Shown here one piece after another: positions 100 through 47,747 of a DNA stretch of 50,796 bases. Below the pieces are notes generated by a model that worked only from the letters and a program-made list of their open reading frames with translations, did no database searches and was not told the origin of the DNA. Position 1 is the stretch's first letter; each line of letters opens with the position of its first letter. Origin of the DNA: a virus (Duplodnaviria; Caudoviricetes); IMG/VR virus record IMGVR_UViG_3300020205_001870, positions 1-50,796 of that record; one strand, written 5' to 3'. A program made the translations under genes and the position numbers.

Positions 100-494
100 C
101 GGGGGTTGGGATAGGTGATACCTTAAAAAAGGGCGCAGGTTTTATGCGCTTTCTTATGCCCCTTCTTGGTATTTACGGTGCCTATGAAGTAGCAAACATG
201 CTAAAGGAGGGGACCATTGGAGAAGCCGATGAACGGAGACTCCGGACTTTAGAAGCTCTGGGAGCAGTCAGTGGGGGTATGTCCCAAGATCTCCAGAACC
301 AAGAACAAATTAGAACCATGCAACGGATGGTGGATCTTGCAGGGGTAGAACGTCAAAAAAACCTTGACGCTATGCGGCAAGAGTATACAGGAAACATGAG
401 TCTTGATACCCTCCTTCGGGGACAACAAGCCTCGTTGGCGATGCTGGCTCAACCTAGTCGGCCAAGTATTGCGGAGATGATGGCGAGGATGTAA
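1..494 (+). CDS. C-terminal part of an origin-spanning ~601 aa protein starting at 49386; putative internal virion/ejection protein
   Basis: In frame with ATG 49386 across the repeat; Lys run, Pro/Ala linker, hydrophobic segment FMRFLMPLLGIYGAY. Confidence 0.7.
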   Translation, partial: AAVDLPGKKKKKKFKGGAPAPIPAPASPSPATPGVGIGDTLKKGAGFMRFLMPLLGIYGAYEVANMLKEGTIGEADERRLRTLEALGAVSGGMSQDLQNQEQIRTMQRMVDLAGVERQKNLDAMRQEYTGNMSLDTLLRGQQASLAMLAQPSRPSIAEMMARM

Positions 495-862
495 TGATTC
501 AGATTGAGGACGTTAAACAAATTTCCCATGAGGTTGTTGAATCCCACAACAATCGGGGCTTTGCCATTGTGAAGATAACCCCCACTGATTATGGGCCAGT
601 GGGGGTTCTACTCAACATGACTAAAGAACCTTTGATTAAGAAAGGTTCCGAGTTGAGAGCGAAGGCGGATGTCCGAAAGTTCCTGTGGGATCAAAGTAAA
701 AAGTTACAGATGCGGCGACGGGACCGTAGTTTTATTTGGACCCGATATGTCGAGGCGGAAGATTCTAGTGTTATGGGGTTAGCCACGTTGGTTAGCCGGG
801 AGGTTGCAGAACGGATGGCTAAACTGGACAATGGGTACCAGTGGATAGAGGTGCATCCATGA
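494..862 (+). CDS. Hypothetical protein
   Basis: TAATG coupling upstream and ATGA coupling downstream. Confidence 0.7.
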   Translation: MIQIEDVKQISHEVVESHNNRGFAIVKITPTDYGPVGVLLNMTKEPLIKKGSELRAKADVRKFLWDQSKKLQMRRRDRSFIWTRYVEAEDSSVMGLATLVSREVAERMAKLDNGYQWIEVHP

Positions 863-1398
863 GTCGTATTGCCGCATCAGCGTTTAAAAGCTTGTCCAAT
901 TTTGGAGCCCCCCTAAAGACTATCGCCCGCAAGAGCAGGGCTATTGCAAATAAAGTCGAGGGTGTGGCAGACAATATGGGTCTACAGTTTGGATCCCCCA
1001 TGACTGCATTGGGGGTTGGCGTTCCAACAGCCATGTTTCTGGGGGGACTTGGTACCACCCTTGGGTCTGCATCTAAAGAAGAATTCACCGGGTTTGACCG
1101 GGATCTAAAACTAGAACTTGCAAGGCAGCGATATCAGGTAAGCCAGAATTTAAAGGCCCGCCGCCTCCAGCAAGCGATGGCTGCAAACATGACGAGGTTG
1201 GCAGCTGCAAACCCGCAATTGTATAACCAATTGTTGGTTGGGCGAACTCTGCCCCAAGGAGCTGTAGTTATTGGCGGTGGTCAAAAGACAGATTTTCTTG
1301 AAAGTGTTGCTTATCAGATGGCTACCGGGGGGTTTGAAAACCCTACTCAATCCCCCGATTCTCCAGATGTGATGCAGACCCTTTTGAACTCTTATTGA
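859..1398 (+). CDS. Hypothetical protein, possible virion/ejection protein
   Basis: ATGA overlap start at 859; Gly/Ala-rich hydrophobic stretch followed by a helical region. Confidence 0.65.
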   Translation: MSRIAASAFKSLSNFGAPLKTIARKSRAIANKVEGVADNMGLQFGSPMTALGVGVPTAMFLGGLGTTLGSASKEEFTGFDRDLKLELARQRYQVSQNLKARRLQQAMAANMTRLAAANPQLYNQLLVGRTLPQGAVVIGGGQKTDFLESVAYQMATGGFENPTQSPDSPDVMQTLLNSY

Positions 1399-1406
1399 GG
1401 TGAACC

Positions 1407-1853
1407 ATGCCCGGACAAATCCCACTCGACACACGTTACTACCCATCAGACTTCAACATTCATGGCGAGACTATTGTTATTCCCGCTACTGGCGTAATGG
1501 CTATGCCTTTGCTTTACGCGGATCGGGCGATGATTATTGACTCGGTCACAATGTACGTCTTTGGGGGCGTAGCAATTGCTACTAACCCTGTGTCGCTGAA
1601 GATTAAGCAGGTGCCTGCTTCCGCTGAACCGGTTTTTAGCACAGCAACTCAGGACATTGGCTCGTTTACAACCCTTGCTGCGGGTACTACTACGGCAGCT
1701 ACGCAGACCCTTTCCTTTTCCAAGACAAACAACAATGTAAATAATAATCAGGTCCCTGCAGGTTCGTGGGTTTGGTTCCAGACTACAGCTGCAGGTAGTA
1801 TTACGAATACCCCAACCGTTGTTGTCCAAATTCGGTATCGTAGTCAGTCCTGA
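1407..1853 (+). CDS. Putative structural protein (beta-rich, decoration-like)
   Basis: GAGGTG RBS; Thr/Val/Ala-rich; followed by a terminator similar to the one after the capsid gene. Confidence 0.6.
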   Translation: MPGQIPLDTRYYPSDFNIHGETIVIPATGVMAMPLLYADRAMIIDSVTMYVFGGVAIATNPVSLKIKQVPASAEPVFSTATQDIGSFTTLAAGTTTAATQTLSFSKTNNNVNNNQVPAGSWVWFQTTAAGSITNTPTVVVQIRYRSQS

Positions 1854-1877
1854 TTTTAAGATCTTTTTCCCCCCGCG

Positions 1878-1910
1878 AAGGGCCATCCGTCATGGGTGGC
1901 CCTTTGTCTT
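1878..1910 (+). terminator. Probable intrinsic terminator
   Basis: AAGGGCCATCC-GTCAT-GGGTGGCCCTT stem followed by TGTCTT. Confidence 0.6.
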
Positions 1911-1926
1911 AGACGATACTAATTAC

Positions 1927-4900
1927 ATGAGCCAGTTACCCCTCAACCTCCCCTTTGAACAATTGACTGGGTACGACAAACCGCAGATTCTTTTGACCCA
2001 AGCATTAGATAACGAACTGACAATGCGAGGTGCATTGCAGACGTTGGTGGATGTGGATGGGTTAACGCCCAAAGAGCGCGATCTGTTTACCACACGTTTA
2101 AAGGATCGCATCGGTAGAAACGCGATCACAGATACGGTGGTGGATATTGCCACGAACCCGTTTGTCCTGTTGATGGCCATCACCAATCCAGTGGGGGGAC
2201 AGGCCCTAAGCCGAACGGGTAAAGCGATATTTGATATGAGCGCAAGGTTCAGCCCCTTGGTTAAAGATCAAGGGGGAATGCATGCAGCGTTGGGGGCTCT
2301 TGCGCCAATGCAATTGTTTCGAGGGACCGCTTTAACTCCTGCCGTTCAAGCATTTTCAAAAAATGTAGATCAGCTGGAGAAAGAATTGATGGCCCGTGTT
2401 GGGGATCCGCTTAGAAAAGTGCTAGAGAAGAACGGGTTGGATTCGTTGAACCCGGAACATATAAAGGACGCGGCGAAAAAATTAAAGGCTAGTCAACTAA
2501 ACGATGCGCTTGAAGCGTCTTTAAGGGGTCTAGATAAGGAAGTTGTAGATAAGGTTCTTCAGGCTCGGAAGATGATTGGCACAGAAGTTTACAGTAAGAA
2601 GAAGCACACTCGGATGCAGTGGGCTCAATATGGTCGGTACGAACCGGTGGTTAAAAAGCGAGTGACAAAGCGGTATATCCAAAGGGATATGGATCAAGAG
2701 ATTGATCGTTTGGGTTTGACAGAATTGAGAGATGCATACAAGAGTGCGCTCTCCGAACGAGAAAACGCTTTGTTTATGGATGTTGAGAAGACCCTTCGCA
2801 CGGGGAAGAAAGTAGCAGACCCGCAGAAGTTATTGCGTATCTGGGAAGGTGCTCGTTTCGGGGCAAAGCAGGGTGGTGCTTTTAATGGCACGACAGCTGA
2901 GATGGCGGCTATGGCTCTCAACCCCGAGATTGCTTCTTTAATTGCTAGCGGCAAGTTAAATCAGAAAGCCTTTATGGCGGCTATGACCGAAACGATTGAA
3001 GGTCATGCCAGTTATTACATGCCCAGAAATTTGATGGAGCTAAAGGGGACAACAGACATTGGGCGATTGATGGAGCAGAAGAGAAGTCGAAGCTTGGTGG
3101 CTAGTGGGTCAACTTTAAATCGCACCAGTTCAACAGGTACATTTGATCCTGAAGATCTGCAACGAATCTTTGATCAATATGGGGCCACTAAAGCAGGGGC
3201 CAAGTTGTTGGACAACGCGCAAAAGAAAGTTAAGAACATCTTGGGGAAAGGTGGAGTTGCCCGCACTTACCGTCTGAACGCCCAAGAATCTTTGAGCCGT
3301 TACTTCCGAGATACAGGGGTGACTCATGCTTTGTATGTCCAAACAGAGGATGTCCTTCCTCGTCTAGGGCAAGCTTTGCAAGACACCAAGGGTTATGCAA
3401 ACCCTGAGAAACTGAAACAGATAAACAAAGCTCTAAGGCCTAATCCTTTGATGGACGGACGCAAGTCTTTGGCTAAGGTGTTTCAAGAACAACACTTTTT
3501 GCTAGAGGATCGTTTCGCAAAGGAGGCTCTTGAAGTCATCTTGCGGCAAGCAACAGGGGTTCAAAAGATTGAACATGCTGCAACCCACATGGCTTTGATT
3601 AAAGGCAAGCAAGGCTTGCGTTTGATGCTGGATTCCCCGGTAGGAAAAGCCCTTAAAGATTCCAGTAAGTGGGGCGAAGGTGTGTATTCCCGCATGGACG
3701 AAATGGCTAATGCAGAGTTGTCTTTAGGGGGTGCAAAGGGAATCAGTGGACAGTTGGCTAAGTATTTCTATGTCACCCATCTGGGTTTGAATTTGGCATC
3801 TGTGACCATGAACATGATGCAACCCCTTCTTTATGCAAGCGTGTATGGGGGGTTGGGCAACGTACTCAAGTCGTATAAGAGTGCGTTCACAGAACTAGGT
3901 TCTTATATGAGTGCGCGTGTTGGCAAGCACGGATTTAAATCCCTGAATGACGAACAACATCAAGCACTGATCTCTAAGCACTTTAAGTTTGCAAACATGG
4001 AGGGGGAGAATCTTGTCCAAATTGGGCGAGACACATTCTCTACTTTGGATAGCATCTCTTATAAAACATCTGCCCTTGCCGATGCCGCAAAGAAAGAAAG
4101 TTATTTCTTTGACTACCCTATGAAGCTGTTTGAGAAAGCGGAATGGTTGAACCGGAACGTAGCCGCTTACACGGTCGAGAATCTTTATAAGTCAAAGGGT
4201 TTGATTCCCACCAAAGCCAGTCCCACGTATTACCGGATGATAAATGACGTGGATGAAATGGTGAGCGCGACCCAGTTTGGCGGGTCTAACCTCAATACCC
4301 CTATGGTATTTCAAGGGGAGGGTTCTTTAGGACGGCTTGGAAACAATCCTTTGTTCCGTCAGTTCTTAAGCTTTCCTCTTCGTACCACGACAGGTATGAC
4401 GTATGAGGCCGCTCGTCTTGGGGATAGAGGTTTGTTTAAGGGGGTTGGCCAAGATCTTATTAGAGGTTTGGGTATCAGTGCCATCTTCTATGAGGCGGGA
4501 AAGAACACATTTGGTGTGGACCTGAGCCCCGGTTTGTTTGGGGCAAGTCTTGGACAATTGGTTGGTGGGGATCGCTTCTTTCAAGATGGAAACGAGTATG
4601 TTCCTATCCCCCCGGTTATTGATATCCCGGTCAACATTGTTCGTGGTGCATTGGATCCCGGTCAAAGGGAGCTGTTACAGAACAACATTCCCCGCTTGAT
4701 TCCCGGAGGTATCGGGCTGGCTCGAATGTTTAATCTGATGCCCAACTTGCCGGAAAGCCCCCTGTTTAATTTGCCGGGGGCACTACAGAAAACGTACATT
4801 GACCCTCGTCAACGAAGTCCTGAGGGGGGTGTTGCTTTGTTTAAAGGAGATGGAACCCTGATTGGGTATGAGTCTCCGGGTCAGATTTATGCAAAGGCTC

Positions 4901-5364
4901 TTGGTGTGGATCTTGGTACGTTCAAACAGGCCGGGGACTTTGACGGGTACCTATTGAAGAACCGTGACCAGATAGTGAACTATCGGCAACGGGCAATTCA
5001 AGCCTTGTTGAGTAACGAAATCCCCCGGATGCAAGCCATCAAATCCGAATTTAAGAAACGGTATGGCATGGATCTGACGATCAGCAAAGAGCAGTTAGAC
5101 TCGGCTCAAAAGAATAGATTGATCAGCCGAACAGAACGTATTCTGGATCGTATGCCCCCTGATCAACGGGCGCAATTTCAACAGCAGGCTGTGTCTCGCG
5201 CCCCTGAAATGGGTTTGGAAGCAGAGGTCATCATGGGTGCAGACACAGCCCGGGAACGAATGCAGGGCCGGTTAACGCAACAGCAACCTATGTCCCCGGA
5301 ACAAGTTGAAGTTATGCGCCAAGAGACTGGTAATCCGGGATACCAACCCTTCTCTACTTATTAG
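1927..5364 (+). CDS. Large internal virion (ejection) protein, ~1145 aa
   Basis: Long helical ORF ending the virion arm, as in podoviruses; ATG 1927 lies just after the terminator. Confidence 0.6.
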   Translation: MSQLPLNLPFEQLTGYDKPQILLTQALDNELTMRGALQTLVDVDGLTPKERDLFTTRLKDRIGRNAITDTVVDIATNPFVLLMAITNPVGGQALSRTGKAIFDMSARFSPLVKDQGGMHAALGALAPMQLFRGTALTPAVQAFSKNVDQLEKELMARVGDPLRKVLEKNGLDSLNPEHIKDAAKKLKASQLNDALEASLRGLDKEVVDKVLQARKMIGTEVYSKKKHTRMQWAQYGRYEPVVKKRVTKRYIQRDMDQEIDRLGLTELRDAYKSALSERENALFMDVEKTLRTGKKVADPQKLLRIWEGARFGAKQGGAFNGTTAEMAAMALNPEIASLIASGKLNQKAFMAAMTETIEGHASYYMPRNLMELKGTTDIGRLMEQKRSRSLVASGSTLNRTSSTGTFDPEDLQRIFDQYGATKAGAKLLDNAQKKVKNILGKGGVARTYRLNAQESLSRYFRDTGVTHALYVQTEDVLPRLGQALQDTKGYANPEKLKQINKALRPNPLMDGRKSLAKVFQEQHFLLEDRFAKEALEVILRQATGVQKIEHAATHMALIKGKQGLRLMLDSPVGKALKDSSKWGEGVYSRMDEMANAELSLGGAKGISGQLAKYFYVTHLGLNLASVTMNMMQPLLYASVYGGLGNVLKSYKSAFTELGSYMSARVGKHGFKSLNDEQHQALISKHFKFANMEGENLVQIGRDTFSTLDSISYKTSALADAAKKESYFFDYPMKLFEKAEWLNRNVAAYTVENLYKSKGLIPTKASPTYYRMINDVDEMVSATQFGGSNLNTPMVFQGEGSLGRLGNNPLFRQFLSFPLRTTTGMTYEAARLGDRGLFKGVGQDLIRGLGISAIFYEAGKNTFGVDLSPGLFGASLGQLVGGDRFFQDGNEYVPIPPVIDIPVNIVRGALDPGQRELLQNNIPRLIPGGIGLARMFNLMPNLPESPLFNLPGALQKTYIDPRQRSPEGGVALFKGDGTLIGYESPGQIYAKALGVDLGTFKQAGDFDGYLLKNRDQIVNYRQRAIQALLSNEIPRMQAIKSEFKKRYGMDLTISKEQLDSAQKNRLISRTERILDRMPPDQRAQFQQQAVSRAPEMGLEAEVIMGADTARERMQGRLTQQQPMSPEQVEVMRQETGNPGYQPFSTY

Positions 5365-5903
5365 AGGGGAGTCCAGAATTGAAGGCATTGCGTTTTCTCA
5401 AACCAACGAACCACGCCTTGCCCGTATCTAGGGAGTAGGCGGACCAAGATTCTGGAGTCTGGATCTAACTTCATAACTTGGTCCGCCATATCCCGTAGAG
5501 TCTCCCGCCCGATATTAATGTTGGCAAGGTAAGCACCACCCACGGAGGAAAATGTAAGGTGTCCCTTACACGGGCCTCCGTCCACGCGAATGGTCTTTGC
5601 TTCCTTGCCATGCAGTTCAGTGGGGGTTTCTCCAGCTGGCAACGACAATGTCTGTACAAGCCAGTAACCATTGTTTGGATCCAAAATAATTTGGATCGAC
5701 CCCCGTAACGGGAGGGTAAAACATGCTGATTTATTTGTGTTCAGGGGAACGGGTGCAGAAACCCCGAGACTTTTAAATCCAGAATGTTTCACCCTCAACG
5801 GCACGGGCATACTCCACGGACGCGGCGTGTAATTTAAATCCACCATCCGGACAATTGTTTTGCATTCTACGTAAGGGATTGAGGGCTCGTAGGACCGATC
5901 CAT
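5361..5903 (-). CDS. Hypothetical protein (start uncertain)
   Basis: Last ORF of the minus arm; its stop codon overlaps the convergent stop. Confidence 0.5.
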   Translation of the reverse strand: MDRSYEPSIPYVECKTIVRMVDLNYTPRPWSMPVPLRVKHSGFKSLGVSAPVPLNTNKSACFTLPLRGSIQIILDPNNGYWLVQTLSLPAGETPTELHGKEAKTIRVDGGPCKGHLTFSSVGGAYLANINIGRETLRDMADQVMKLDPDSRILVRLLPRYGQGVVRWFEKTQCLQFWTPL

Positions 5904-5999
5904 CGTCTTGCTTTCTAGGGGGAGACAACCACCTAGGCCAACCCGCTAGAGCCAGCAGGCAAGTATGCACCCTCAATCCCGGGAACGTAGCCAAAGGGG

Positions 6000-6031
6000 G
6001 AGGGGGTAGAGCTTGTGGGCCCTACCCCCTC
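6000..6031 (-). terminator. Stem-loop downstream of the SSB-like gene
   Basis: GAGGGGGTAG...CTACCCCCTC inverted repeat; no clear U tract. Confidence 0.45.
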
Positions 6032-6058
6032 TATCAGTGGGGGTTTCAGTTAGGAGGC

Positions 6059-6625
6059 TTAGGCCTCGGACAGAAGCTTGTTGAGAAACTCTGTCTTGTA
6101 GATCTTAGATGCCGACGTGCCCTTCCCTTTACGGTATTGGCAACGGACCGTGCAAACGATCTGCTTGTCACTGGACAAGTTTGTGGTTGTGCGTTCAATC
6201 GCGTCTGCCACATCCAGACCATCGGCAGTTCCAACCTTACTTCCAAGCAAGGTGGACAGATGGCCACAGAAACGATTACGTTCAATCTGAAGACCGGTGC
6301 GCCGACCCTCAGAAGTTACCGCCGCAGGGTTGTCCGGGAAGATGAAGGGAGCCCCACCCCACACAAGCGGACTATCCGGGTTGGCTTCGTCATTGAGAAG
6401 TTGATAGCGGAACCGGAACTCTGTGGCGGAGATCTCTTGCTGTTGCCCTTGTTCGGATGTGAATCGGTAGGTTGCCTTATCGTTGATGTCGAGGGACAGA
6501 ACATAGCAATCGTGCTCCCCCTCATTTGGCCACTCGCCAAGACCACCAATACCAGTGTCCGGGTTGGCATCTCCGAATGCGGCTTTCTGTGCTGCGAACA
6601 TTGCGCTAATCTTTTGATTCGCCAT
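6059..6625 (-). CDS. Putative single-stranded DNA-binding protein
   Basis: AGGAG RBS; follows the AAA_24 ATPase, the usual Sak4-SSB gene order; beta-rich. Function inferred from context. Confidence 0.5.
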   Translation of the reverse strand: MANQKISAMFAAQKAAFGDANPDTGIGGLGEWPNEGEHDCYVLSLDINDKATYRFTSEQGQQQEISATEFRFRYQLLNDEANPDSPLVWGGAPFIFPDNPAAVTSEGRRTGLQIERNRFCGHLSTLLGSKVGTADGLDVADAIERTTTNLSSDKQIVCTVRCQYRKGKGTSASKIYKTEFLNKLLSEA

Positions 6626-6658
6626 AACTATCACTACTCCTGAAAGGTTCTGCAAGCG

Positions 6659-7555
6659 TTACGCGCTTGCGTTGGTGTTGTACTTTTCCACAAAGATACC
6701 CCATCCGCCTGCCTCTGGCAGTTCAAATTCGGAGGGCATCTTAACGCGATGCTTGGTGATACCCGCTAAAGACTCGGAGTCTACAGAGAACAAGTATCGC
6801 TTGCGCTTCTCAGTCACGATCTTTGGTTTGAGGGTGACGGTCTTTCCGTCCCGAACAATCGGGGGCTGTGCAATCTCTCGTTGCTCCGTGACCCACTCTG
6901 TAGAGATGGCGGCAACCATTTCAAACAAGGGGTAAAGACGTTTATAGAAGCCATCCGTAATTGTAAGCTCGGGTTTGATTACATACTTGTCGTCCCCAAG
7001 AGGGATCTTTGCGTTGACGACATGGCAGATAATGTAGACCCCGTAGCCATATCGCCGCAGAGTCAGACAACTGTCAATGACCATATCGTAAAGCTGGTCC
7101 CATGAACGTCGTCCGTCCATCTCCCGCCAGTCCTTCTTATCGTTAGACCGGGTAATCCAATCTTTAAGGAGGGGGATAAAGGTTCCCAAGGAATCAAAGA
7201 ATACAGTTGCTGGGCGGGGTTGATTGTTCTTTGAGAGAGAGCACAACAAATCTATCTTCGCTTGGACCGCCTCCCAAGTCATGACCAAAGGTTGACCATC
7301 AACATCAATTGGCTGGCCTTGTGGATTGATCCCCGGCCAGACACAAGCATGAGGATCACCAAGGGTGGAGGTACAATCCATATTACAAACCCAAGCATCC
7401 GGGTGTGACTGAATGAATTGAGACTTGCCCTCTCCCGGCATACCGCAGATGAGTCCAAACAACTTTTCAGGGGGGTGAACCATCTTAACCCCTTGGAATC
7501 CAAGGGACGAATAGCGGTGCTGTGGTAGCTTACCGGCATGGGTTGTTAGAGTCAT
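6659..7555 (-). CDS. AAA_24 / Sak4-like P-loop ATPase
   Basis: Walker A GMPGEGKS, Walker B TVFFDS, IICH motif. Confidence 0.8.
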   Translation of the reverse strand: MTLTTHAGKLPQHRYSSLGFQGVKMVHPPEKLFGLICGMPGEGKSQFIQSHPDAWVCNMDCTSTLGDPHACVWPGINPQGQPIDVDGQPLVMTWEAVQAKIDLLCSLSKNNQPRPATVFFDSLGTFIPLLKDWITRSNDKKDWREMDGRRSWDQLYDMVIDSCLTLRRYGYGVYIICHVVNAKIPLGDDKYVIKPELTITDGFYKRLYPLFEMVAAISTEWVTEQREIAQPPIVRDGKTVTLKPKIVTEKRKRYLFSVDSESLAGITKHRVKMPSEFELPEAGGWGIFVEKYNTNASA

Positions 7556-7558
7556 CTG

Positions 7559-7897
7559 TTAGTCCTCGAATCCGGGCATCCGGACATTCTGAAACATTTG
7601 ATTTTGAGGGGGCGGAAAATTAAAGTGCCCTTGTTGATGACTTGTTTGGAAGTGTTGTTGATCTGGGGGTGGGGGCAAGGGGGCTTGGTTTCTAATCCGA
7701 GGACCATCAATCTGCACAGTCCTCGTTACTCGGTAGCCGATTGCCTTAAGCCAATCTGTAATTCGATTCTTAGAAACTCGACACCCGTGAAGCTTATTAA
7801 ACTTGGTGGTCATATCCCCAATGGATTCAACCCCGTCTTCTAACACACGATCTATACGTGGCTTAATGACAAGATGCACGTAGTCCTCCTCAAACAT
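7559..7897 (-). CDS. Hypothetical protein, possible HTH with Pro/Gln tail
   Basis: TAATG coupling at 7897 gives MFEEDYVHL. Confidence 0.6.
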   Translation of the reverse strand: MFEEDYVHLVIKPRIDRVLEDGVESIGDMTTKFNKLHGCRVSKNRITDWLKAIGYRVTRTVQIDGPRIRNQAPLPPPPDQQHFQTSHQQGHFNFPPPQNQMFQNVRMPGFED

Positions 7898-9324
7898 TAC
7901 ATGCGGGGCTCGGGCTCTAGGTTCTCTATCAACCCGTCGAACTCGTGCTGCGCGGGCTGCAATGGCAGCTCGCCCGCGTCCCGATGTGCTATTAGGAACT
8001 GCTCGGACTTCAGGAGCATTGGCCAGTCCTTCGGCTCCGTCAGATAAAACGGGCTGTAGTTCGCCAGCTTCGATCCCATCCTTAATCCGTCGATGTTTCT
8101 TAGGTAGTTGCATGGGTTTGCCTCGCGTGTTGCCAAATCGTAAATCATGACAACACGGTTAAGATAGTCTGTTCGCCAATCCTTGTCAAGCATAATGCTT
8201 GCGTGAGTGTAAGAAATGTTTATAGGGGGGTCGTTGTTAAAATCGGGAGCACGGTCCAAGTATTCGCCCTCTCCCTTGTACCAACGCATACACCGCTCTT
8301 GGTATTTGGCAATGGATGGTTCACCTTGGTAGACACGCTCTGGTTTTTTACCTGTTTGGCTATGCAATTCAGCCAAGCAATCCTCTATTGATCCACAAAA
8401 TGGTTCCAGATAAGGAGCTTGGGCAGTCCACTTTATAACGTAGGGCCCAAGGTCTTGAATGTTTACAGGGCTGCGCATGATACGTCCCGCGACCCCCGTC
8501 CTCTTCCCTTCTGATTCCCAATGAAAGTCTCTATCGGCTTGGCCAAATTGAATGGATGGTTTCAAGATGGCCATGTGCATCATGCCCCCTATCTCTGCGT
8601 TGGCTGGGATCTGGGGGTATTGTTTATGGAGTAGTCCCCGCTCAAAGAACCACTCCAATGCATGGATGTAATGCATCGTTTGGAATTCTTCTTTCACGGT
8701 GGACAACCTAATCAGTGGGGGCCCAGCGGTCGTCTTTGCATCCACGATCCACAGCTTATTGGTCTTACGGTTGAGAAGAAGCAGGTCGAACTGGGTCACC
8801 TGACGACACTTTGGAAATCGTTCGTCTAACCATGTGAGTCGTAGTTCCGCGCCGATCTTTATGAAGTTGTCTTGCAATAGGTCGAGGGCGGAATTCTGAT
8901 TGAGGCACGGCAAATTTTCAAAGGCATTATACCAAGCCCCGGCCATAGCCTGATCCAACTGCTCATTCTGAATTGCAGTAGCACGAGCTGTCTCCGAGAT
9001 CCGCAGTTGTTTACAGATGTTGTTGATTTCTGTAAGCCGAGCAGCACACATTCGCTTATAGATTTGTGGCCGATCATCCCGATCAAAGAGGGCGAACAGA
9101 ACATGAAAGTAGCTACCTCTAGACAGGGCTTCTGAATAGGAGAGCGCAGGGATAATTCCTAATCTACGCCGGAGGTAGTACCCAAAGGGATCTGAAAGTG
9201 CAGATCCGTAATCAGAAGAACGAATTGATGGGATACTTGCAGGTAGCCCTTCGGACTCAAGGAAGTGGCGGGCACTTCTTCCGCGATCTTTTGGAAGGGG
9301 GGCTGGGTTTACAACTGGGAACAT
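7897..9324 (-). CDS. PD-(D/E)XK nuclease (RecB/AddB-like exonuclease)
   Basis: IRSS...P..YY N-terminus, RGSYFH, AELRL, QFDLL, IVDAKTT, Q...Y. Confidence 0.8.
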   Translation of the reverse strand: MFPVVNPAPLPKDRGRSARHFLESEGLPASIPSIRSSDYGSALSDPFGYYLRRRLGIIPALSYSEALSRGSYFHVLFALFDRDDRPQIYKRMCAARLTEINNICKQLRISETARATAIQNEQLDQAMAGAWYNAFENLPCLNQNSALDLLQDNFIKIGAELRLTWLDERFPKCRQVTQFDLLLLNRKTNKLWIVDAKTTAGPPLIRLSTVKEEFQTMHYIHALEWFFERGLLHKQYPQIPANAEIGGMMHMAILKPSIQFGQADRDFHWESEGKRTGVAGRIMRSPVNIQDLGPYVIKWTAQAPYLEPFCGSIEDCLAELHSQTGKKPERVYQGEPSIAKYQERCMRWYKGEGEYLDRAPDFNNDPPINISYTHASIMLDKDWRTDYLNRVVMIYDLATREANPCNYLRNIDGLRMGSKLANYSPFYLTEPKDWPMLLKSEQFLIAHRDAGELPLQPAQHEFDGLIENLEPEPRM

Positions 9325-9835
9325 CTTTTTCTTTTTCCTTGTCTTGTTGAAATTTTTCCCGGATATGAGTGAGGCGGTTGTACACGGACTGCGGGCTTTT
9401 CAATTCGAGTACATCGGCTATGCGGGTCATCGTATACCCGTCACAGCGCAACCTGATGATGGTCCATTCTTCTTCCGTCAAGTCAATAGGGAGACAAAAA
9501 GTTTTTTCAGTGGGGGCCGCAAGCTGTTCGTCACAGCTTGAATCTTTTGACAAGGGGATCTTTAAACGAAGACCCTTCTCCGTAAAGCGATAACCCCTTT
9601 CTTTCCAGTATGCATAATGCACTGCCCCCCATAAAAAGGCTTTAAGGAAAGTGATCACCGAAGATTTTTCGGCATCGTAAATTGTGGACAGGAGCCTGTT
9701 CGTTTGGATGTAGGCTTCAGATAGGATCTCGTCTGTCGTCCAAGCCGGGAATCTTTTTTTTCTAGAGACTTCTCGACTCCAGTAAATAAGATAACCTACG
9801 TGGTCATGAGGATTATCGCTATGCCGTTGATCCAC
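9257..9835 (-). CDS. Sigma70/ECF-like transcription factor
   Basis: Region 2-like DEILSEAYI...YDAEKSSVITFL; region 4 LTEEEWTIIRLRCDGYTMTRIADVL...QSVYNRL. Confidence 0.7.
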   Translation of the reverse strand: MDQRHSDNPHDHVGYLIYWSREVSRKKRFPAWTTDEILSEAYIQTNRLLSTIYDAEKSSVITFLKAFLWGAVHYAYWKERGYRFTEKGLRLKIPLSKDSSCDEQLAAPTEKTFCLPIDLTEEEWTIIRLRCDGYTMTRIADVLELKSPQSVYNRLTHIREKFQQDKEKEKDVPSCKPSPPSKRSRKKCPPLP

Positions 9836-9853
9836 GTTTGCAACCCCTGCTGG

Positions 9854-10437: not shown

Positions 10438-10474
10438 GGGGCATTCTCCTCAAACCAATCATCATACCCTTGGT

Positions 10475-39677: not shown

Positions 39678-40549
39678 TTACCGGCCCAATTCTTCTTCGG
39701 ACCTTTCACGATGTTAATTCAGTGGCCCCTTATCCAGCGTACAACACTGTGGGGGGTAACCCCGGGGAGATAGTGACCTGCAGTAAAACAGGGCGTATGT
39801 GGATCCTGCAGAAAAACGGGTCAGAACGAGTATACATCCCTGTGCGCCCTGAATTTAGATACTCAGATCCATTAGCGGGAGTGTCGGAAGCAGGTGTGAA
39901 GGGGTATACCTTTTCATCAGGCCCTTCCACTTATCAGGGCTTAGAACTGTATGGCCCAACTAAAGTAACAGGTAGTTCGTTTGAAGTTTCAAATCTAGTT
40001 CTTATTAACAATACAGCTGCAGCGTTTAAAACAAAGATCCAAGGCCAAAAGGGTATTTACCTTTATAAGCTGGATGTGGGTACGGGAAACGATGTTCTTG
40101 CTCCGGACATTCCTAGTTTAGGAACAAATGAGTTTGGGGAGATTGTTGCCACGGAATCTTATGCCCTAAGAAACATCTTAGACGCAGATCTCCCGTTGAC
40201 CCCAAACACTAGCACAGAAATAGTGGACTTAAGATCAAGTACGGGAACTACAGGAGAGGGTAAAAGTGTGTATGTAGAAGCGGTTATTCAGTTTAACCAC
40301 ACTGGAAGTCACGTCGTGACTGCCGCTCTGTATGACCATAGTCTTTCAGTCTATATTTCTAGTTCTAAAGTATCTATGAACGGGTGGGCTCAAGTAAAAC
40401 TGAGCGGCTTTGCGCCCGCTGGAAATCAAATCCGGGTTTATGTCCAGTGTGATGTTAACGCTGTTGTAAAGGCGCAGGTCGGAACTTATAACTCCCCTGC
40501 TACCCACATAACGCTGACCGAAACAAGATATCCTGATCCATCGTTATGA
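39674..40549 (+). CDS. Putative tail fibre/spike protein
   Basis: ATGA-coupled; beta-rich C-terminal domain. Confidence 0.55.
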   Translation: MITGPILLRTFHDVNSVAPYPAYNTVGGNPGEIVTCSKTGRMWILQKNGSERVYIPVRPEFRYSDPLAGVSEAGVKGYTFSSGPSTYQGLELYGPTKVTGSSFEVSNLVLINNTAAAFKTKIQGQKGIYLYKLDVGTGNDVLAPDIPSLGTNEFGEIVATESYALRNILDADLPLTPNTSTEIVDLRSSTGTTGEGKSVYVEAVIQFNHTGSHVVTAALYDHSLSVYISSSKVSMNGWAQVKLSGFAPAGNQIRVYVQCDVNAVVKAQVGTYNSPATHITLTETRYPDPSL

Positions 40550-41334
40550 GCAATAACCCAGAGCAACTTGACACTGCAAATAGGGAATTTGAACAGATAG
40601 GCCCATCTGTTTCGACTGTCCTATCCCAACGATTGACTCAGGGTTTTCAAATTGCAACCATTTCCCCGGGCCTTAAATTTTTAGGGCCAACAAACTATTC
40701 CGCTCCCGGATCTGTTCCCAACCAAACCGGACCATCGTTAGCCGCAAACTTCTTCAGTGGGGGTGGCGACGGCTTTGGCGATTCAAGTCCGATGTTTTTT
40801 AATGTCATAAACAATCCTCCCCTTTCGGGAACTGCAAATCCTGAATCTGTTCCTGCTACGGGCCCTGAAGAAAAGATCCGTTATTCGTGTGTGGATGGAA
40901 GATGTCTACAGGATCCCAATGGGGATTATTTAGGCATTGAAGAATGTTTGGCTGCCCCCTGCATTTCTTCAGGCGGGGGTCCGGGAGATGATCCCTGCGA
41001 TTGCGGCTATGGACCCAGCTTAACGATCTTTAAAGCTCGTATTACAGGAATTACAAATACCGAGGGGGGTAGTTCTTCAGGTGGTAAAACTTATTGGACT
41101 TATAGTTTTACAGAGGTTACTGCTGGAACCCCGAGAACAAATGTTACTTTAAGTTCTGCGGCTCGAAATGAGCATGAACTTACAATGCCTAATAACGGCG
41201 GTAATTCTGTTCCTGCAGGAACAACTATAACCCGCAAAAGAATTCCGAACGATGCAGTAGTCCCTTTGTTTTTAGATGAAGACGGGATTCCTTGGTTCCA
41301 CTTTATTAATCCCTTAGGGATAACTTGCACATGA
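40546..41334 (+). CDS. Tail-module protein with a small Cys motif
   Basis: YSCVDGRCLQDPNGDY...EC...C; WTYSFTEV...ARNEHE. Confidence 0.55.
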   Translation: MSNNPEQLDTANREFEQIGPSVSTVLSQRLTQGFQIATISPGLKFLGPTNYSAPGSVPNQTGPSLAANFFSGGGDGFGDSSPMFFNVINNPPLSGTANPESVPATGPEEKIRYSCVDGRCLQDPNGDYLGIEECLAAPCISSGGGPGDDPCDCGYGPSLTIFKARITGITNTEGGSSSGGKTYWTYSFTEVTAGTPRTNVTLSSAARNEHELTMPNNGGNSVPAGTTITRKRIPNDAVVPLFLDEDGIPWFHFINPLGITCT

Positions 41335-42401
41335 GTATTCTTGCGGCTGCTTGTTGTTGCACAGTTCCTTCTGTGTGTCCTAAGTGGTACGCAACCTCCT
41401 ATTTGGCAAGCGGCATTAGTGGAAGTGTTTCTTTCTCTAAACAATACAACTTTAGTTATAGTTGTTGGTGCCCGGTAGGGGAACCCAATACTATCCCTAC
41501 GTCCTACTCTATTGATGTCTCTTATAGTCAAGTGACACCAATTGTTATGGTGTTAGATGATTCTCTTGGCCCAAGTGGTTGTTGCTATAGAGGACAAGGA
41601 CAAATTGAAATTCAGTATTCGGTAACTCTTATACACGCAGTACACTGGTGTGATTGGTCCGATGCAAATCTTTGTCCTTGGGGGGAAGGAGATCCCCCGG
41701 ACGATTGGACCGCAGTTCAATACGAAGAAGTAACTCTTACGGGATCTGCAACTGTAGATTGTTGTTTAGACGTTATCCCCTTCGGAACATTTGCTAATGA
41801 AGGTTGGCCCGCAGGTGCAACGGGGGCTACGCCTACCTTTCTCCACACCTTAAACATTTGCGACTTCCCTGTAGGGGGATCTATTACCCCGCTTTATGAC
41901 AGCGTCGGTGGGATCTATGGCCCTTGTTATGCGGTGGGAGGGATTCCTTTCAGTTTACGATGCGTAGGGGCGCAATTTGCTTGGATTAGCCCCCGGCAGG
42001 AGTTGGATACTTTGGCGGGAGAACCGAAAGGTTTTCTTAGCGTCTGTCAAACTTCAAGTAATGAATCTCTTAGGCGATGTGGACCCGGTTTGCAGTCAGG
42101 GGTTTGTGCTTCAGATCAGCTCTCTTGCTACCCCTGTGTCGCACTGAACCAACTAAATCACGGCCCCTTCGCAATGGTTGGGGTTGAAGAATTTGGGGGC
42201 CAAGATATTCCGGAACCATGTACGCTCGGCACAACTGGAACTCTGGCCACATTTAAAACTGTCCCCACAGCGGGTGGTGGTAGTCAGACTTGTGGGTTAG
42301 ATCCAAGTTTAGATTGCAATCCATATGGGTCTTTAGATGAGGCTACGCTCTGCTGCGACATTCTCCGAACCATCTCAAAGACGGGATGGATTTACACATG
42401 A
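41331..42401 (+). CDS. Cysteine-rich tail-module protein
   Basis: AAACCC N-terminus; 25 Cys counted. Confidence 0.65.
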   Translation: MSILAAACCCTVPSVCPKWYATSYLASGISGSVSFSKQYNFSYSCWCPVGEPNTIPTSYSIDVSYSQVTPIVMVLDDSLGPSGCCYRGQGQIEIQYSVTLIHAVHWCDWSDANLCPWGEGDPPDDWTAVQYEEVTLTGSATVDCCLDVIPFGTFANEGWPAGATGATPTFLHTLNICDFPVGGSITPLYDSVGGIYGPCYAVGGIPFSLRCVGAQFAWISPRQELDTLAGEPKGFLSVCQTSSNESLRRCGPGLQSGVCASDQLSCYPCVALNQLNHGPFAMVGVEEFGGQDIPEPCTLGTTGTLATFKTVPTAGGGSQTCGLDPSLDCNPYGSLDEATLCCDILRTISKTGWIYT

Positions 42402-42838
42402 TCTGCATTTCGTTGATTGAAAAAAATTGCACGAACGCCGAGGCCGTTGCTCTTTACGGATCCCGTCCTAGTCCGGGCATTTGCTCTATTTGTGCTTTGC
42501 ATTCCGAGCGTGCCCCCACTGAACCGCCTTTGCCCCTACCCCCAGAACCAGTGGGGGTCCCTAAAATCACTTCCCGAGTTGCAAGCTGGCTAAAGGCAGA
42601 AGTTAGTTTAGTTGTGGAAGGGCCTTTGGCGGATCTTGATTATGAAGTAAGAATGGATACGTGCCGTAAATGTGATCGTCTTGAAAGTTCTTCTGAGCCT
42701 AATAAAGTGGGATTTTGTTCCGCTTGTGGGTGTGGGAGTAATCGGCGAGCAGAGTTGACTGTAAAGGGCCGAATGCCAAAGGCTAAATGCCCACTGAATT
42801 ACTGGCCCAAAATTGAAAGTAGAACGGGAGAACCTTAA
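42398..42838 (+). CDS. Small CxxC-rich protein
   Basis: CSIC, RMDTCRKC, CSACGC, KCPLNYW. Confidence 0.7.
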   Translation: MICISLIEKNCTNAEAVALYGSRPSPGICSICALHSERAPTEPPLPLPPEPVGVPKITSRVASWLKAEVSLVVEGPLADLDYEVRMDTCRKCDRLESSSEPNKVGFCSACGCGSNRRAELTVKGRMPKAKCPLNYWPKIESRTGEP

Positions 42839-45800: not shown

Positions 45801-46545
45801 ACGGATAACAACTCTTGACTTTCAGGGCGATAGTCGATTTGTTGCTTCGGCCAACTGGGATCCAACAAATCTCCAGATTCCAATTACAAGTGCCACAGGC
45901 ACAGTCGTTGGAACAAACAATTGGCGATTCGCCTATGTTTACCTAGTGGCATCCTCGACAAACCCTTCATTGGTGGGTTCAAAAGCCAAAGTGTTACATA
46001 ACACATCGACGGGGGTCTATGTTCAAAACACCGGATCTCAAGCGTGGGTTACATCTATTGTGGCCGGGGACATCTTTGTCGTTAGCCCGGTTCCATTTGA
46101 GTGGGTCGGACATCCACTAGGCCTGTCTAACGAACAAGGGCTAATCTATTCAAACGCGGACTTTTTCCGTATGAAAATTGTCAGCAGTTTGGGGGCAAGT
46201 TTTTCCGATGTCTCGGGCCCCCCGATAACGGATGTAATTACAACTACTTCACCGTTGGACAGATTTTCAGCCGTTATTTATTCCGGAACTCAAGATCTTC
46301 CTTTGGCAACGGCTTTGACTAAAGAGACTAATGGAACCCTTTATAGTTCGGTTGAAGACGATGAAGGGTTGGTGTATGCGGCGTTTGGTTCCGATTCTTC
46401 AGATGGAAGATACGGAGTCAAAGGAACGACTTTGAGTCCGGGCATTAAAATTTTGTGCCCTGATCTCGACTTTCGTCTCTTGGGTTGCATTGTTCGGGGA
46501 AGCATTACGTCCGTTGAACGGACATCTAACAACCGAGGTAGCTGA
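42838..46545 (+). CDS. Putative tail nozzle/stabilisation protein with inserted DNRLRE(CBM96)-like and FN3-like domains
   Basis: GEMRWS...PELFP and GYGIVNQKAV propeller-like motifs; ADAFV...TNY...LRFD...WNE..TTWN...WSTAGG; YLWKVVA. Confidence 0.6.
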   Translation: MTDIKNDWSYPVMETTLDKRLERPGVQRGYASEMTGVDGRSEGGLKPFPGFKKVYTLSGLQSQPNHTIKSVVSDLKAVDFRIGSDHYAYGFVYRAIRPAAPTLSDVFLDYWDSVNQSWTQAIVLMSGVSISAQFDVQVAGRFVYCFAEGRSPSLFYIEATRTKEYICEADAFVNSAAATTNYESSQPLTLELISGSSTKNIFLRFDTSAETNELVESAVLEFTVTGNSITAASGTLHVAPLSDPGTTAVLWNEAQTTWNLRATAVNWSTAGGSYEAGHEINYTLLKNYLGKVQLSTTNIVQRAVNGLSQAFTRKTDVIVRGTTGNNLVSLAGKSQSNYSIRPKLVVTYTNKVFLTPTIIGVTGTGSIPGPGKQPSLSSPERGIAPGSFTSLDAGRPSSAQIVLISDNPYSSDNFFPNQATGICYNDTVPSPAVVTPPGSPYTHTPTAGACTGYTSTGLITQLLTPANKQTSVSVTPKLDWTTYYTTGQSIGPNTRWDVYMVEDGQGILSQKRLNTVDLTETSFEPANLFPNLRLAYGKKYLWKVVAKRMDCADFYVESTVGSFTTENRYQARKFEPGDYSFGYVLGSSKTGRKSAFSTVAQVRSEDFTIARTQNGNTISVKQDQYVGVEIVYDSAKYDQMYVYRSVKIQDAGGTMVAGLPFLDAIVRLSDYHTCLNGTGRTFGDATTNRHAMYFYELEDKQLVYQNAYVDRSVFDETMPFAGTAFFYQNTMLTSKISTPQVSTTEENRISDSTRGLGEMRWSSLMDLTPELFPPFNRYNPTVPSNEIIRFSGVGSNVLGFSRDKVYHLRKSGPYVKVTEMHEGYGIVNQKAVDTVGSAAYYVTSHGLKSVDGQGQLDEIRNLNTVFVREWKNTLQYVQVVHDPFMNCLFIHNPVREETYILWFSTGKTTKLEDTNFDLVAQGSWPIQWLTNLQASNDLSRRAFFLQNNQDPRVSGVGFNTFTGPTIYIVDNYGFKSVVNGSSSWNGQRRITTLDFQGDSRFVASANWDPTNLQIPITSATGTVVGTNNWRFAYVYLVASSTNPSLVGSKAKVLHNTSTGVYVQNTGSQAWVTSIVAGDIFVVSPVPFEWVGHPLGLSNEQGLIYSNADFFRMKIVSSLGASFSDVSGPPITDVITTTSPLDRFSAVIYSGTQDLPLATALTKETNGTLYSSVEDDEGLVYAAFGSDSSDGRYGVKGTTLSPGIKILCPDLDFRLLGCIVRGSITSVERTSNNRGS

Positions 46546-47747
46546 TGAGCCAGTTTCAATCTTATAATAATCAAGGTGGTTCTTCGGGTTACGATCCCGT
46601 TTCTGCGCTTTCAAATTTCGGAGGTAACCCCTTTGATCAACCGGGATTTAATCAGTCGGGCCCTCGTCAAAATCGAAGTCCAGCCCCGAAGCCACCTACT
46701 TTAACTCCCCCTACAAGTCGAAGTTCCCAAAGTGGATTCCAACCGCGAACAAATGGGATCATGGGTAATGTGGCCCGCGCCGGTTCTTTGCCCCGAACAA
46801 CGACAACTTCCGGAATTAACCCGGGGTATTTGCGTTGGGATGCGGCCCTTGCGGGAGCAATGGGGACGGATATCCGCAACCAGCAAGGTGAAATGAACCG
46901 GATGTTTGGCGCGGGGCAGAAACAAATCGGAATGAGTGAAGACGCTCTTCAGCGGGGCATCGGCACTATGCAATCAGTGGGGGCTGAACAGCGACAGAAT
47001 TTCTCCCAGATGGCGGGAGGACTAGAACAACAGGGTCAAAAGGACTTTGAGGGATTTACAAAGTACCGGGACGAACAAATGGGCCGGGTGGATAAGGATA
47101 TTTCTGTGGCTAATCAGCAGGCTGCAGGGGCTGTTTCTGGTTATGAACAGGCTATTGGTCAGTTCAAAGATACAGGCGCACAAGACGCGGCCAATGCTGC
47201 CTTTGGAATGCGTCGAAACATTGAGATGGCAAACAAGCAAATTGATGCGGGTTTAAATGCGGACGGTTCCATGATGAGCCCTGCAGAGAAACAAGCAGCA
47301 CGTCAACAGCTTTATTCTGAGTCTGAGAGCCAAGTCTCTCAGGCTGTTACAGGCATCTATAGCAATATGAATCAACAGGTTGCTTCAATGCAAGGGAATC
47401 TTGCAGGACTCCGGACAGGTCAAGCACAACAGACGTTGGCTGGTGGTCAACTTCGGGGTCAGATAGGTACAACCTTTGGGGCTCAAACTTTAGATGCCCA
47501 ACAGACAAATTACCGGATGAAGGAACTAGGTTCTAATTTGCGAACAATGGGAGAGCAGGCATATGCCAGTGCTATGCAGCAATCCGTAATGTTTGAAATG
47601 CAAGGACGGCAAACCATGGCCCAGATGGTGAGAGAAAACCCAAGGCAGTTTGTCAGTATGTTTGCTGGACTCACAGGATTCCTCGCGGGGGCAACAACTC
47701 CGGGTCTTCGAGATATCAGCATTCCTAACTTTGGAGCCATGACATGA
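46545..47747 (+). CDS. Gln/Gly-rich putative ejection protein
   Basis: Composition and position after the nozzle gene. Confidence 0.55.
   Translation: MSQFQSYNNQGGSSGYDPVSALSNFGGNPFDQPGFNQSGPRQNRSPAPKPPTLTPPTSRSSQSGFQPRTNGIMGNVARAGSLPRTTTTSGINPGYLRWDAALAGAMGTDIRNQQGEMNRMFGAGQKQIGMSEDALQRGIGTMQSVGAEQRQNFSQMAGGLEQQGQKDFEGFTKYRDEQMGRVDKDISVANQQAAGAVSGYEQAIGQFKDTGAQDAANAAFGMRRNIEMANKQIDAGLNADGSMMSPAEKQAARQQLYSESESQVSQAVTGIYSNMNQQVASMQGNLAGLRTGQAQQTLAGGQLRGQIGTTFGAQTLDAQQTNYRMKELGSNLRTMGEQAYASAMQQSVMFEMQGRQTMAQMVRENPRQFVSMFAGLTGFLAGATTPGLRDISIPNFGAMT

Follow-up and report, generated by a model that had tools for sequence, protein, structure and literature searches.

A nine-base DNA word kept at high density, in clade-specific versions, in a family of aquatic phages: a possible Chi-like signal

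Why would a phage genome of about 50 kb carry one exact nine-base word every 2 kb, on both strands and mostly inside its genes? The question is raised by the IMG/VR record IMGVR_UViG_3300020205_001870, the full 50,796 bases of which (called the window here, and G000 where it is compared with other genomes) hold 24 exact copies of CAGTGGGGG, 18 on the plus strand and 6 on the minus strand, or about one per 2 kb. A preliminary description of this DNA had listed the same 24 copies with the same 18:6 split, and both the counts and the coordinates were reproduced exactly. The window has a GC (guanine plus cytosine) content of 49.5%, and IMG/VR classes it as 100% complete with direct terminal repeats. 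Its first and last 99 bases are identical; this repeat is the assembly overlap of a circular or permuted 50,697-bp genome and holds none of the 24 copies.

Could the composition or the coding content of the genome produce such a number? In 100 dinucleotide-preserving shuffles, the word occurred 0.55 times on average and at most 3 times, and none of the shuffles reached 24; similarly, Markov models of orders 0–4 expect only 0.26–0.84 copies on the plus strand and 0.13–0.22 on the minus strand. Codon-aware shuffles were made within 56 rough gene calls. Exchanging synonymous codons (n = 1000) gave a mean total of 5.19 copies with a maximum of 10, and shuffling the codon order (n = 1000) gave a mean of 4.42 with a maximum of 7, totals that include the 4 copies outside the gene calls, which were never shuffled. 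Inside genes, about 1 copy is expected by the codon shuffles, compared with the 20 seen. Furthermore, CAGTGGGGG is the commonest 9-mer of the window by a factor of three, the next unrelated 9-mer having 6 + 1 copies. The enrichment thus persists under Markov models of orders 0–4 and under codon-aware nulls.

The word itself is strict at all nine positions, as its 27 single-mismatch variants total 14 copies compared with 12.2 expected, which is chance level. AGTGGGGG occurs 26 times (19 + 7), and 24 of these occurrences are preceded by C, as had been described. The flanks show preferences only, for A/T at −2, T at −1 and T at +1. The genome is arranged in three gene blocks (plus strand at 1–5364, minus strand at 5361–24401 and plus strand from 24430 to the end), and the copies occupy all three reading frames, 9 in the sense direction, 11 antisense and 4 outside the gene calls. 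The frames quoted earlier (VSGG, PVGV, TPTD, PPL and DPHC) were correct, and the copies at 6035 and 17912 do lie between open reading frames (ORFs); truly intergenic copies number 2 of 24. In the following list, exactness was compared in the complete relatives G001, G002 and G003, and private means present in G000 only.

269–277, plus strand: sense in ORF 9–494 (VSGG); not conserved in G001–G003
579–587, minus strand: antisense in ORF 494–862, paired in inverted orientation with 597 as the left member; exact in G001 and G003
597–605, plus strand: sense in ORF 494–862, right half of that pair, 9-nucleotide (nt) spacer; exact in G001 and G003
2189–2197, plus strand: sense in the 1181-aa (amino acid) ORF 1819–5364; exact only in G002, with 2–3 substitutions in G001 and G003
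5618–5626, plus strand: antisense in ORF 5361–5903; exact in G001
6035–6043, plus strand: intergenic, beside a conserved hairpin at about 5990–6030; exact in G001, G002 and G003
8713–8721, plus strand: antisense in the gene of the RecB-family exonuclease (PPL); kept exactly in G001–G003, where neighbouring synonymous sites differ
9508–9516, plus strand: antisense in the sigma-factor-like ORF 9257–9835; not conserved
13769–13777, minus strand (the minority strand): sense in the gene of the ERCC4 nuclease; kept exactly in G001–G003
14737–14745, plus strand: antisense in the family A DNA polymerase (PolA) gene; private to G000
15163–15171, plus strand: antisense in the PolA gene; exact in G001 only
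15390–15398, plus strand: antisense in the PolA gene; exact in G002 and G003
17912–17920, minus strand: intergenic, 36 nt upstream of the start of ORF 17573–17875; not conserved
23273–23281, plus strand: antisense in the superfamily 3 (SF3) helicase gene; exact in G002 and G003
24034–24042, plus strand: antisense in the SF3 helicase gene (DPHC); kept exactly in G001–G003
26486–26494, minus strand: antisense in ORF 26392–26841; private
26888–26896, plus strand: sense in the DUF6321 gene 26841–27092; exact in G002
32060–32068, plus strand: in ORF 31833–32318, just upstream of the portal gene; exact in G001 and G002
33479–33487, minus strand: antisense in the portal-size ORF 32146–34179; exact only in G003, with 2–3 substitutions in G001 and G002
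34539–34547, plus strand: in a variable linker of ORF 34180–35109; exact in all three relatives, upstream flank unalignable
40755–40763, plus strand: sense in ORF 40546–41334; private
42513–42521, minus strand: paired in inverted orientation with 42549 as the left member, 27-nt spacer
42549–42557, plus strand: right half of that inverted pair, in ORF 42386–42838
46975–46983, plus strand: sense in ORF 46545–47747; exact in G003

The hairpin at about 5990–6030, directly upstream of the copy at 6035, consists of a GC-rich arm that contains a G5 run, its complement and a spacer of about 12 nt, and it is kept in G001–G003 with one compensatory change in the stem.

Is the word shared by related phages, and are its positions? 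A query with the large terminase (TerL) led to 28 IMG/VR loci of 51–83% identity, and the word is present in all 28. The three complete relatives (TerL identity 80–83% or 71%) carry 28, 35 and 32 exact copies at GC contents of 64.0, 66.6 and 62.9%, so that the enrichment extends to related phages and the preliminary description survives the lack of enrichment in relatives that it had named as grounds for refutation. When the window's sites were mapped onto these relatives by tblastx, 10 of 23, 9 of 20 and 10 of 19 aligned sites were exact, compared with 2.1–3.1% of other 9-mers and 4.1–4.9% of GC-rich ones in the same mapping; word sites are thus kept exact 10–20 times more often than other 9-mers. 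Five sites (6035, 8713, 13769, 24034 and 34539) are exact in all four genomes while their flanks and nearby synonymous positions differ. The turnover is nevertheless heavy. Among 61 mapped positions in the four genomes, 43 are private to one genome (a few of these private calls being offset artefacts), and a further 28 sites of the relatives sit in DNA that cannot be aligned to the window. With most positions differing between genomes, shared ancestry cannot account for the number of copies. At orthologous non-sites, the DNA aligns without gaps and departs from the word by substitutions, which shows gain by point substitution and rules out insertion of the word as a unit. Of the window's 24 sites, 23 fall within the 40.5 kb that it shares with two or more relatives, and 1 falls within the remaining 10.2 kb of accessory DNA. 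The earlier suggestion that selection acts on the DNA rather than on the protein is borne out by copies in all frames, in both senses and between genes, which stay exact while flanks and synonymous positions drift. These results confirm that the enrichment is real and is kept by selection, and the pattern is one in which selection maintains how densely an exact DNA word occurs, not where it occurs, while copies are continually lost and gained.

Outside the close relatives, the word changes. In IMG/VR, an alignment query found 266 TerL relatives, and it did find loci where a single-protein scan with a TerL of 61% identity (P0049) gave no locus. Across the clades of these relatives, six versions of the word were seen: CAGTGGGGG, CGTGGGGGGAC, AGTGGGGGGA, GAGTGGGGG, GTGGGGGGG and AGCGGGGAA. 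In a distant relative with 51% TerL identity, CAGTGGGGG is down to 2 copies, and the first rank is taken by GTGGGGGGA, which occurs 31 times and has the consensus CGTGGGGGGAC. Counts in other genomes of the family are as follows.

GTGGGGGGA, in G017: 22 copies
AGTGGGGGG(A), in G016: 23 copies
GAGTGGGGG, in G777 (41% GC): 28 copies
GTGGGGGGG, in G778: 32 copies
AGCGGGGAA, in G775: 18 copies, with 24 copies of AGCGGGGA

The versions differ between clades by small steps, and in a quick IQ-TREE search of 55 TerL rows, the version matched the TerL clade without exception. GC content, on the other hand, ranges over 50–67%, 45–61% and 41–57% within clades, with overlap between them, and the same exact word ranks first both at 49.5% and at 66.6% GC. 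The version of the word therefore follows the TerL tree and not the GC content. The density in ten genomes of the family is 1 per 1.5–2.9 kb, a 35–201-fold excess over an order-3 Markov model. One version starts with AGCGG, which we take to be the Chi word of Bacillus subtilis.

Could composition, codon usage or shared ancestry have produced the enrichment as a functionless by-product? The plus strand is somewhat rich in G-runs, and Markov models of orders 6–7 absorb the signal, but such high orders absorb any repeated word by construction. The lower orders and both codon shuffles expect about one copy, the exact word is top-ranked at two very different GC contents, and the turnover of positions leaves ancestry insufficient. 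This explanation is already refuted, and we give it practically no weight.

Does the word also have a direction? The preliminary description held that its orientation tracks the genome strand and not transcription. The second half of this claim stands, as the sense and antisense copies are nearly equal in number; the first half is weakened for the window taken by itself, where the bias is mostly what GC skew predicts. The plus strand is G-rich, with a GC skew of +0.072 that is positive in 22 of 25 two-kb windows, the minus-strand gene block included, and composition alone (Markov, copies masked) places 62–70% of the copies on the plus strand. Because of this, the 18:6 split of the window is not significant (p = 0.2–0.5). 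In all ten family genomes compared, most copies lie on the TerL-coding strand, which is also the G-rich one, and when one genome per word version was pooled (six clades), 113 of 156 copies lay on the majority strand compared with 94.3 expected (z = 3.09, p = 0.001). The bias of about 72%, compared with about 60% by composition, is therefore real and conserved but moderate. In the clade A genomes, the minority strand holds 6 of 24, 10 of 28, 12 of 35 and 10 of 32 copies (25–36%), and the minority copies of the window (579, 13769, 17912, 26486, 33479 and 42513) lie dispersed along the genome without any point at which the orientation switches. Words of the KOPS/FtsK type, in contrast, show near-complete skew that flips at defined points, and the phage word has neither property. 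As for the skew itself, it reaches +0.18 to +0.27 at 16–22 kb, so that the coding strand of the minus-block genes is C-rich there; negative skew is confined to 10–12 kb and 22–26 kb, and the asymmetry is independent of transcription.

Copies that lie close together are arranged in a particular way. Among 15 pairs not more than 60 nt apart, counted in the window (579–605 and 42513–42557) and in G001–G004, G016, G017, G777 and G778, 14 are inverted and 12 have the C-rich complement first, with spacers of 7–43 nt; the pair 579/597 is kept in G001 and G003 inside a core gene. Furthermore, a C4 run lies within 40 nt upstream of 10–13 of 24–35 sites (36–46%), compared with a background of 14–21%, and is mostly not enriched downstream. 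Both the inverted pairs and the upstream C-runs suggest that hairpins could form in which the 3′ arm carries the G-run, a feature that none of the models considered here predicts.

What, then, could read such a word? Chi is a short, asymmetric, G-rich word that is read on one strand by a helicase-nuclease entering from a DNA end; on meeting it, the enzyme stops degrading and passes into a state that protects the DNA and favours recombination. The leading class of explanation is a signal of this kind, whose reader might also be the PD-(D/E)XK nuclease of the phage, and a Chi-like end-processing signal, with the reader left open, is the best single mechanism that we can offer, although we hold it only tentatively. 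Under such a mechanism, a helicase-nuclease digesting from a DNA end would read CAGTGGGGG on one strand and then switch its state; dense copies would shield linear and concatemeric phage DNA and would feed recombination-dependent replication. The reader might be a host enzyme of the RecBCD, AddAB or AdnAB type or the RecB-family nuclease module of the phage itself. We infer all three elements of this proposal, namely reading during end processing, the identity of the reader and the consequences.

Phages rich in Chi offer the closest comparison. Chi is the commonest octamer in phage LLS (23 copies, 1 per 1.86 kb), in P1 (50 copies, 1 per 1.90 kb) and in Pseudomonas phage MD8 (32 copies), while in the MD8 host, PAO1, it ranks only 43rd; 20 of 23 copies in LLS and 32 of 32 in MD8 have the same orientation, with the (putatively) active strand on top, and the E. 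coli and Pseudomonas Chi words share 6 of 8 positions (PMC12315714). The LLS and MD8 maps presumably run from the terminase gene. The phage word resembles these cases in being a short, asymmetric, G-rich and top-ranked k-mer at about 1 per 2 kb, with its majority on one map strand and with sites that come and go between relatives. Similarly, as with Chi in bacteria, related lineages have related words, here in the form of small steps between phage clades. The rank of 43rd in PAO1 means that a host Chi need not be very abundant in the host genome, and a nuclease of the RecB/AddB/AdnA fold is a core gene of the phage family, which favours a Chi-like reading.

Several observations weigh against it. 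The word has 9–11 strict positions plus flank preferences, compared with lengths of 5–8 nt for known Chi words, and its orientation bias of about 72% is far below the 87–100% of LLS and MD8. Chi-rich phages show terminal clustering, whereas the copies in the window are evenly spread (Kolmogorov–Smirnov p = 0.27–0.94) with no clustering at one end of the record as assembled. The phage family has a Rec module of its own (a Sak4-like annealase and the exonuclease), whereas Chi-rich lambdoid phages are mostly without one (PMC12315714). As the version tracks the phage tree across wide ranges of GC content within clades, a phage-encoded reader is a simpler proposition than a host one. None of 864 bacterial genomes was enriched in AGTGGGGG or CAGTGGGGG, a sample of less than 0.5% of species and of the clade A/C word only, and two low-power scans of 2.9 million viral contigs for close pairs of the word found scattered copies only in relatives of the family.

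The bacterial scans bear directly on the proposal, made in the preliminary description, of a host Chi or KOPS word of Planctomycetota. They do not favour it, as AGTGGGGG was enriched in 0 of 201 Planctomycetota genomes and was mostly rarer than its reversed control. It was likewise not enriched in 201 Actinomycetota, 201 Gammaproteobacteria, 151 Alphaproteobacteria or 101 Verrucomicrobiota, so that the genomes sampled gave no evidence for a host of any kind. These phylum samples were evenly drawn, with 101–201 species per group, and Bacteroidota, Cyanobacteriota, Chloroflexota and others were covered by single genomes only; because only AGTGGGGG was counted, the phylum scans are blind to hosts of the other versions. 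A phage-level density would mean thousands of copies in a bacterial genome. The largest count was 362 in 9.4 Mb, where the control reached 320, and the best ratios, of about 2–3, occurred at low counts. In 15 bacterial genomes reached via pattern matches, the 9-mer had 4–106 copies each, about as many as the reversed control. A scan of a genome collection for inverted pairs of the word gave at least 120 matches; among those listed, palindromic elements resembling REP (repetitive extragenic palindromic) sequences, in Bacillaceae (L176 and L199) and in one Planctomycetaceae metagenome-assembled genome (MAG; L160, L170, L190 and L244), were rejected as unrelated to the scattered phage word. Each of their arms includes the 9-mer as part of a longer conserved repeat, and the Planctomycetaceae MAG has 106 copies in 5 Mb compared with 110 of the reversed control. 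Clusters of AGTGGGGG in the Verrucomicrobiota MAG G787 were considered as a co-binned phage and rejected, as tblastx gave only spurious short matches. In the first viral scan, 15 of 15 viral loci with at least 4 copies were relatives of the family; in the second, 12 unrelated loci with at least 4 copies proved to be local tandem or coding repeats of up to 1.4 kb. Other pointers to a host were sought in the phage itself. The window has no tRNA genes, none of about 70 ORFs scanned against Pfam and PHROG hinted at a host, the 367 TerL homologues at E ≤ 1e-20 were all metagenomic with none pointing to a host, and the ESM Atlas returned viruses only.

Could the reader be encoded by the phage? The genes that matter for this question are the following.

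6659–7555, minus strand: Sak4-like annealase (AAA_24); core gene, with the exonuclease the phage's own Rec module
7897–9324, minus strand: RecB-family PD-(D/E)XK exonuclease (Pfam PDDEXK_1, 6.6e-09; PHROG exonuclease); core in all word-bearing clades
13692–14240, minus strand: ERCC4-type nuclease; core gene
14503–16620, in the minus block: PolA, from profile scans
16511–17224, minus strand: ORF of the UDG superfamily, overlapping the start of the PolA gene; core gene of the phage family
22974–24401, minus strand: SF3 (D5-like) helicase (Pfam/PHROG); core gene
29915–31879, plus strand: TerL; its coding strand is the word's majority strand in 10 of 10 genomes

The core proteins of all word-bearing clades include the exonuclease, Sak4, ERCC4, PolA, UDG, the helicase, TerL, the portal and several unknowns. 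Of these, the RecB-family exonuclease is a candidate for a phage-encoded reader or effector. Its AlphaFold2 (AF2) model (predicted local distance difference test score, pLDDT, 81; predicted template modelling score 0.75) has as its top Foldseek matches the nuclease parts of AdnA, AddB, RecE, MGME1 and RecB and contains no helicase part, and the clade A exonucleases have an insertion of about 50 aa (at about residues 265–315) that is absent from five other aligned clades. An ORF of small-terminase size at 29403–29915 diverges quickly between clades, as the word does. In the core unknowns 494–862, 841–1398, 6059–6655 and DUF6321, no recognisable DNA-binding domain was found. The helix-turn-helix (HTH) proteins, which had been proposed as binders, turn out to be poor candidates, as sister words occur in clades that have neither of them. 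The one at 9854–10300 has no counterpart even in the closest relatives; the one at 14237–14527 is found in clade A and in the outlying G775 and G778 and not in clades B, C or D, and the syntenic positions of clades B and C showed no HTH genes. Beside them, ORF 9257–9835 (minus strand, 192 aa) has the two-domain fold of an extracytoplasmic function (ECF)-like sigma factor (AF2 pLDDT 84), and its top Foldseek matches are all sigma factors (SigL, sigmaE, SigH, AlgU and SigK). It has only 26 homologues among 1.8 billion representative proteins and is present in clade A and G778. The word was considered as a promoter for this protein and rejected, as the copies lie in both senses and mostly inside genes.

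With these genes in view, how do other explanations compare with a Chi-like signal? A phage-encoded, co-evolving, sequence-specific binder with a function unlike that of Chi (DNA marking or coating, small-terminase packaging sites, or loading of a helicase or replisome) comes close behind the Chi-like signal, possible but doubtful. It would account for the agreement of word version and TerL clade in 55 of 55 rows while GC varies by 12–17 points within clades, for a footprint of about 12–13 bp (nine strict positions, with W and T before and T after) whose mismatch variants are at chance, and for the lack of enrichment in the 864 bacterial genomes and in unrelated viral contigs. The fast-diverging ORF 29403–29915 would fit as well, and the stoperators of Cluster A mycobacteriophages provide a precedent, with a phage-encoded reader, similar site numbers and motifs that co-vary with the repressor (PMC6550527). 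Against this stand HTH proteins that are not common to all word-bearing clades (one protein being a sigma factor), core unknowns without a recognisable DNA-binding domain, and the modest strand bias, as pure double-strand binding predicts none beyond composition. A related idea, a private, phage-owned Chi or self-marker in which a clade-specific word is read by a co-evolving core protein, is one that we regard with comparable reserve. The RecB-family nuclease with the Sak4 module, the terminase or an unannotated core protein would be its candidates, and the marker would tell phage DNA from host and related-phage DNA in end processing, recombination and packaging. The regulatory counterpart, in which a phage repressor or regulator binds the copies and silences or paces transcription, is largely refuted by orientation and very unlikely. 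The stoperators of Cluster A phages (of the L5 gp71 type) are likewise tens of asymmetric sites per 50-kb genome in lineage-specific versions (PMC6550527), so that number, asymmetry and clade-specific versions agree; the HTH and sigma-factor-like genes just upstream of the Cas4-family-like exonuclease loosely recall the repressor-Cas4 neighbourhood (PMC6550527), and monomeric asymmetric recognition has a precedent among stoperator repressors (PMC9283540). Known stoperators, however, mostly have one orientation relative to transcription (PMC6550527), whereas the phage word is split 9 sense to 11 antisense, a difference from mycobacteriophage L5 that had been pointed out from the outset. Moreover, stoperators depend on a conserved repressor in temperate phages, whereas the phage word lies mostly inside genes with only the 2 truly intergenic copies, the HTH genes are not common to its clades, and no repressor, integrase or partition genes were found in Pfam/PHROG scans of about 70 ORFs.

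A target of a site-specific nickase, with packaged DNA carrying single-strand interruptions as in tf, T5 and phiKMV, is improbable. The 46-kb genome of phage tf, which has two convergent transcription units, carries 14 nicks, all on the top strand, at the 9-mer TACTRTGMC (11 exact copies), and their orientation follows the genome strand (PMC3517423). The length of our word, its over-representation and its independence of transcription match this motif, and the phage has two nucleases of the PD-(D/E)XK fold. Motifs of the tf type are likewise over-represented 9-mers of unknown function, at roughly half the density of the phage word. All 14 tf sites, however, lie on one strand, whereas 25–36% of the sites in clade A genomes lie on the other; minority-strand sites are conserved too (13769 in four genomes), and nicking both members of the conserved inverted pairs, 7–43 nt apart, would lead to double-strand breaks. 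Somewhat less probable still are initiation sites on exposed single-stranded DNA, for priming of a lagging or displaced strand and often in the 3′ arm of a hairpin. The spacing of 1.5–2.9 kb, which is the size of Okazaki fragments, is slightly more regular than random (coefficient of variation 0.71–0.88); the majority strand is the G-rich one throughout, the minus-strand gene arm included, and may be single-stranded for longer; and the upstream C4 runs and the inversion of 14 of 15 close pairs would fit as well. On the other hand, no primase domain was found, the helicase ORF 22974–24401 matching only the helicase half of primase-helicases; known primase sites are 3–5 nt long; and the 28% of copies on the other strand are conserved. 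DNA uptake sequences and uptake signal sequences (DUS/USS) have a strict core, weak flanks, both orientations, inverted pairs and lineage-specific variants, and they occur genome-wide in naturally competent bacteria. A host-wide signal of this other kind, or a mutational or repair drive, absorbed by the phage would match the strict 9–12-mer, its two orientations and the frequent inverted pairs. We consider it highly unlikely, as uptake sequences are genome-wide signals of hosts whereas no sampled bacterial genome has the phage word at high density, the single-mismatch variants are neither depleted nor enriched, which speaks against a conversion drive, and accessory phage DNA has the 1 site in 10.2 kb compared with 23 in 40.5 kb elsewhere. 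As the phage looks lytic, there is also no obvious route for a drive by uptake and recombination.

The rest of the genome offers some further observations. In the middle of the early/replication arm lies a protein with an unusual domain combination:

11330–12634, minus strand: protein with Mtd_N and collagen repeats

Mtd_N is a domain of the tropism determinant of Bordetella phage diversity-generating retroelements, but no reverse transcriptase turned up among the scanned ORFs. A second repeated word of the window, a 15-mer present five times at 12134–12367, was set aside as the collagen-type coding repeat of this ORF. The helicase ORF and the divergent ORF 24430–26373 are separated by only 28 bases (24402–24429), so that either early promoters lie inside coding sequence or a start codon was miscalled. 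The DUF6321 protein (26841–27092, plus strand, 83 aa) stands out by its conservation, as it has 72–73% identity to its clade B counterparts, where TerL has about 50%, and in PHROGs, it matches the C-terminal ends of far longer proteins. Most structural ORFs had no matches in the Pfam/PHROG scans, and sequence searches of the PDB with ORFs 24430–26373 and 27491–28834 gave nothing. In a sequencing-run index, near-identical DNA was found in freshwater, estuary, wetland and sediment metagenomes from 9 studies, with no culture among them; the runs are stored there as contigs only. Searches for a close cultured relative found none, as a 9.7-kb DNA query and TerL matched nothing in 50,697 phage records, and PolA gave only matches of 24–30% identity there.

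What would the word mean for these phages and their hosts? If it is a host Chi, it would reveal the recombination hotspot words of uncultured aquatic bacteria, and with one related word per clade, it would provide a sequence-only handle for matching phages with hosts. If its reader is encoded by the phage, the word would belong to a self-marking system that diversifies between clades, with a bearing on DNA protection, the exclusion of relatives and recombination-dependent replication. Either way, the same exact word at constant density, through large shifts in GC content and heavy positional turnover, is a natural experiment in which selection on DNA words becomes directly measurable and the function of the word can be tested with oligonucleotides.

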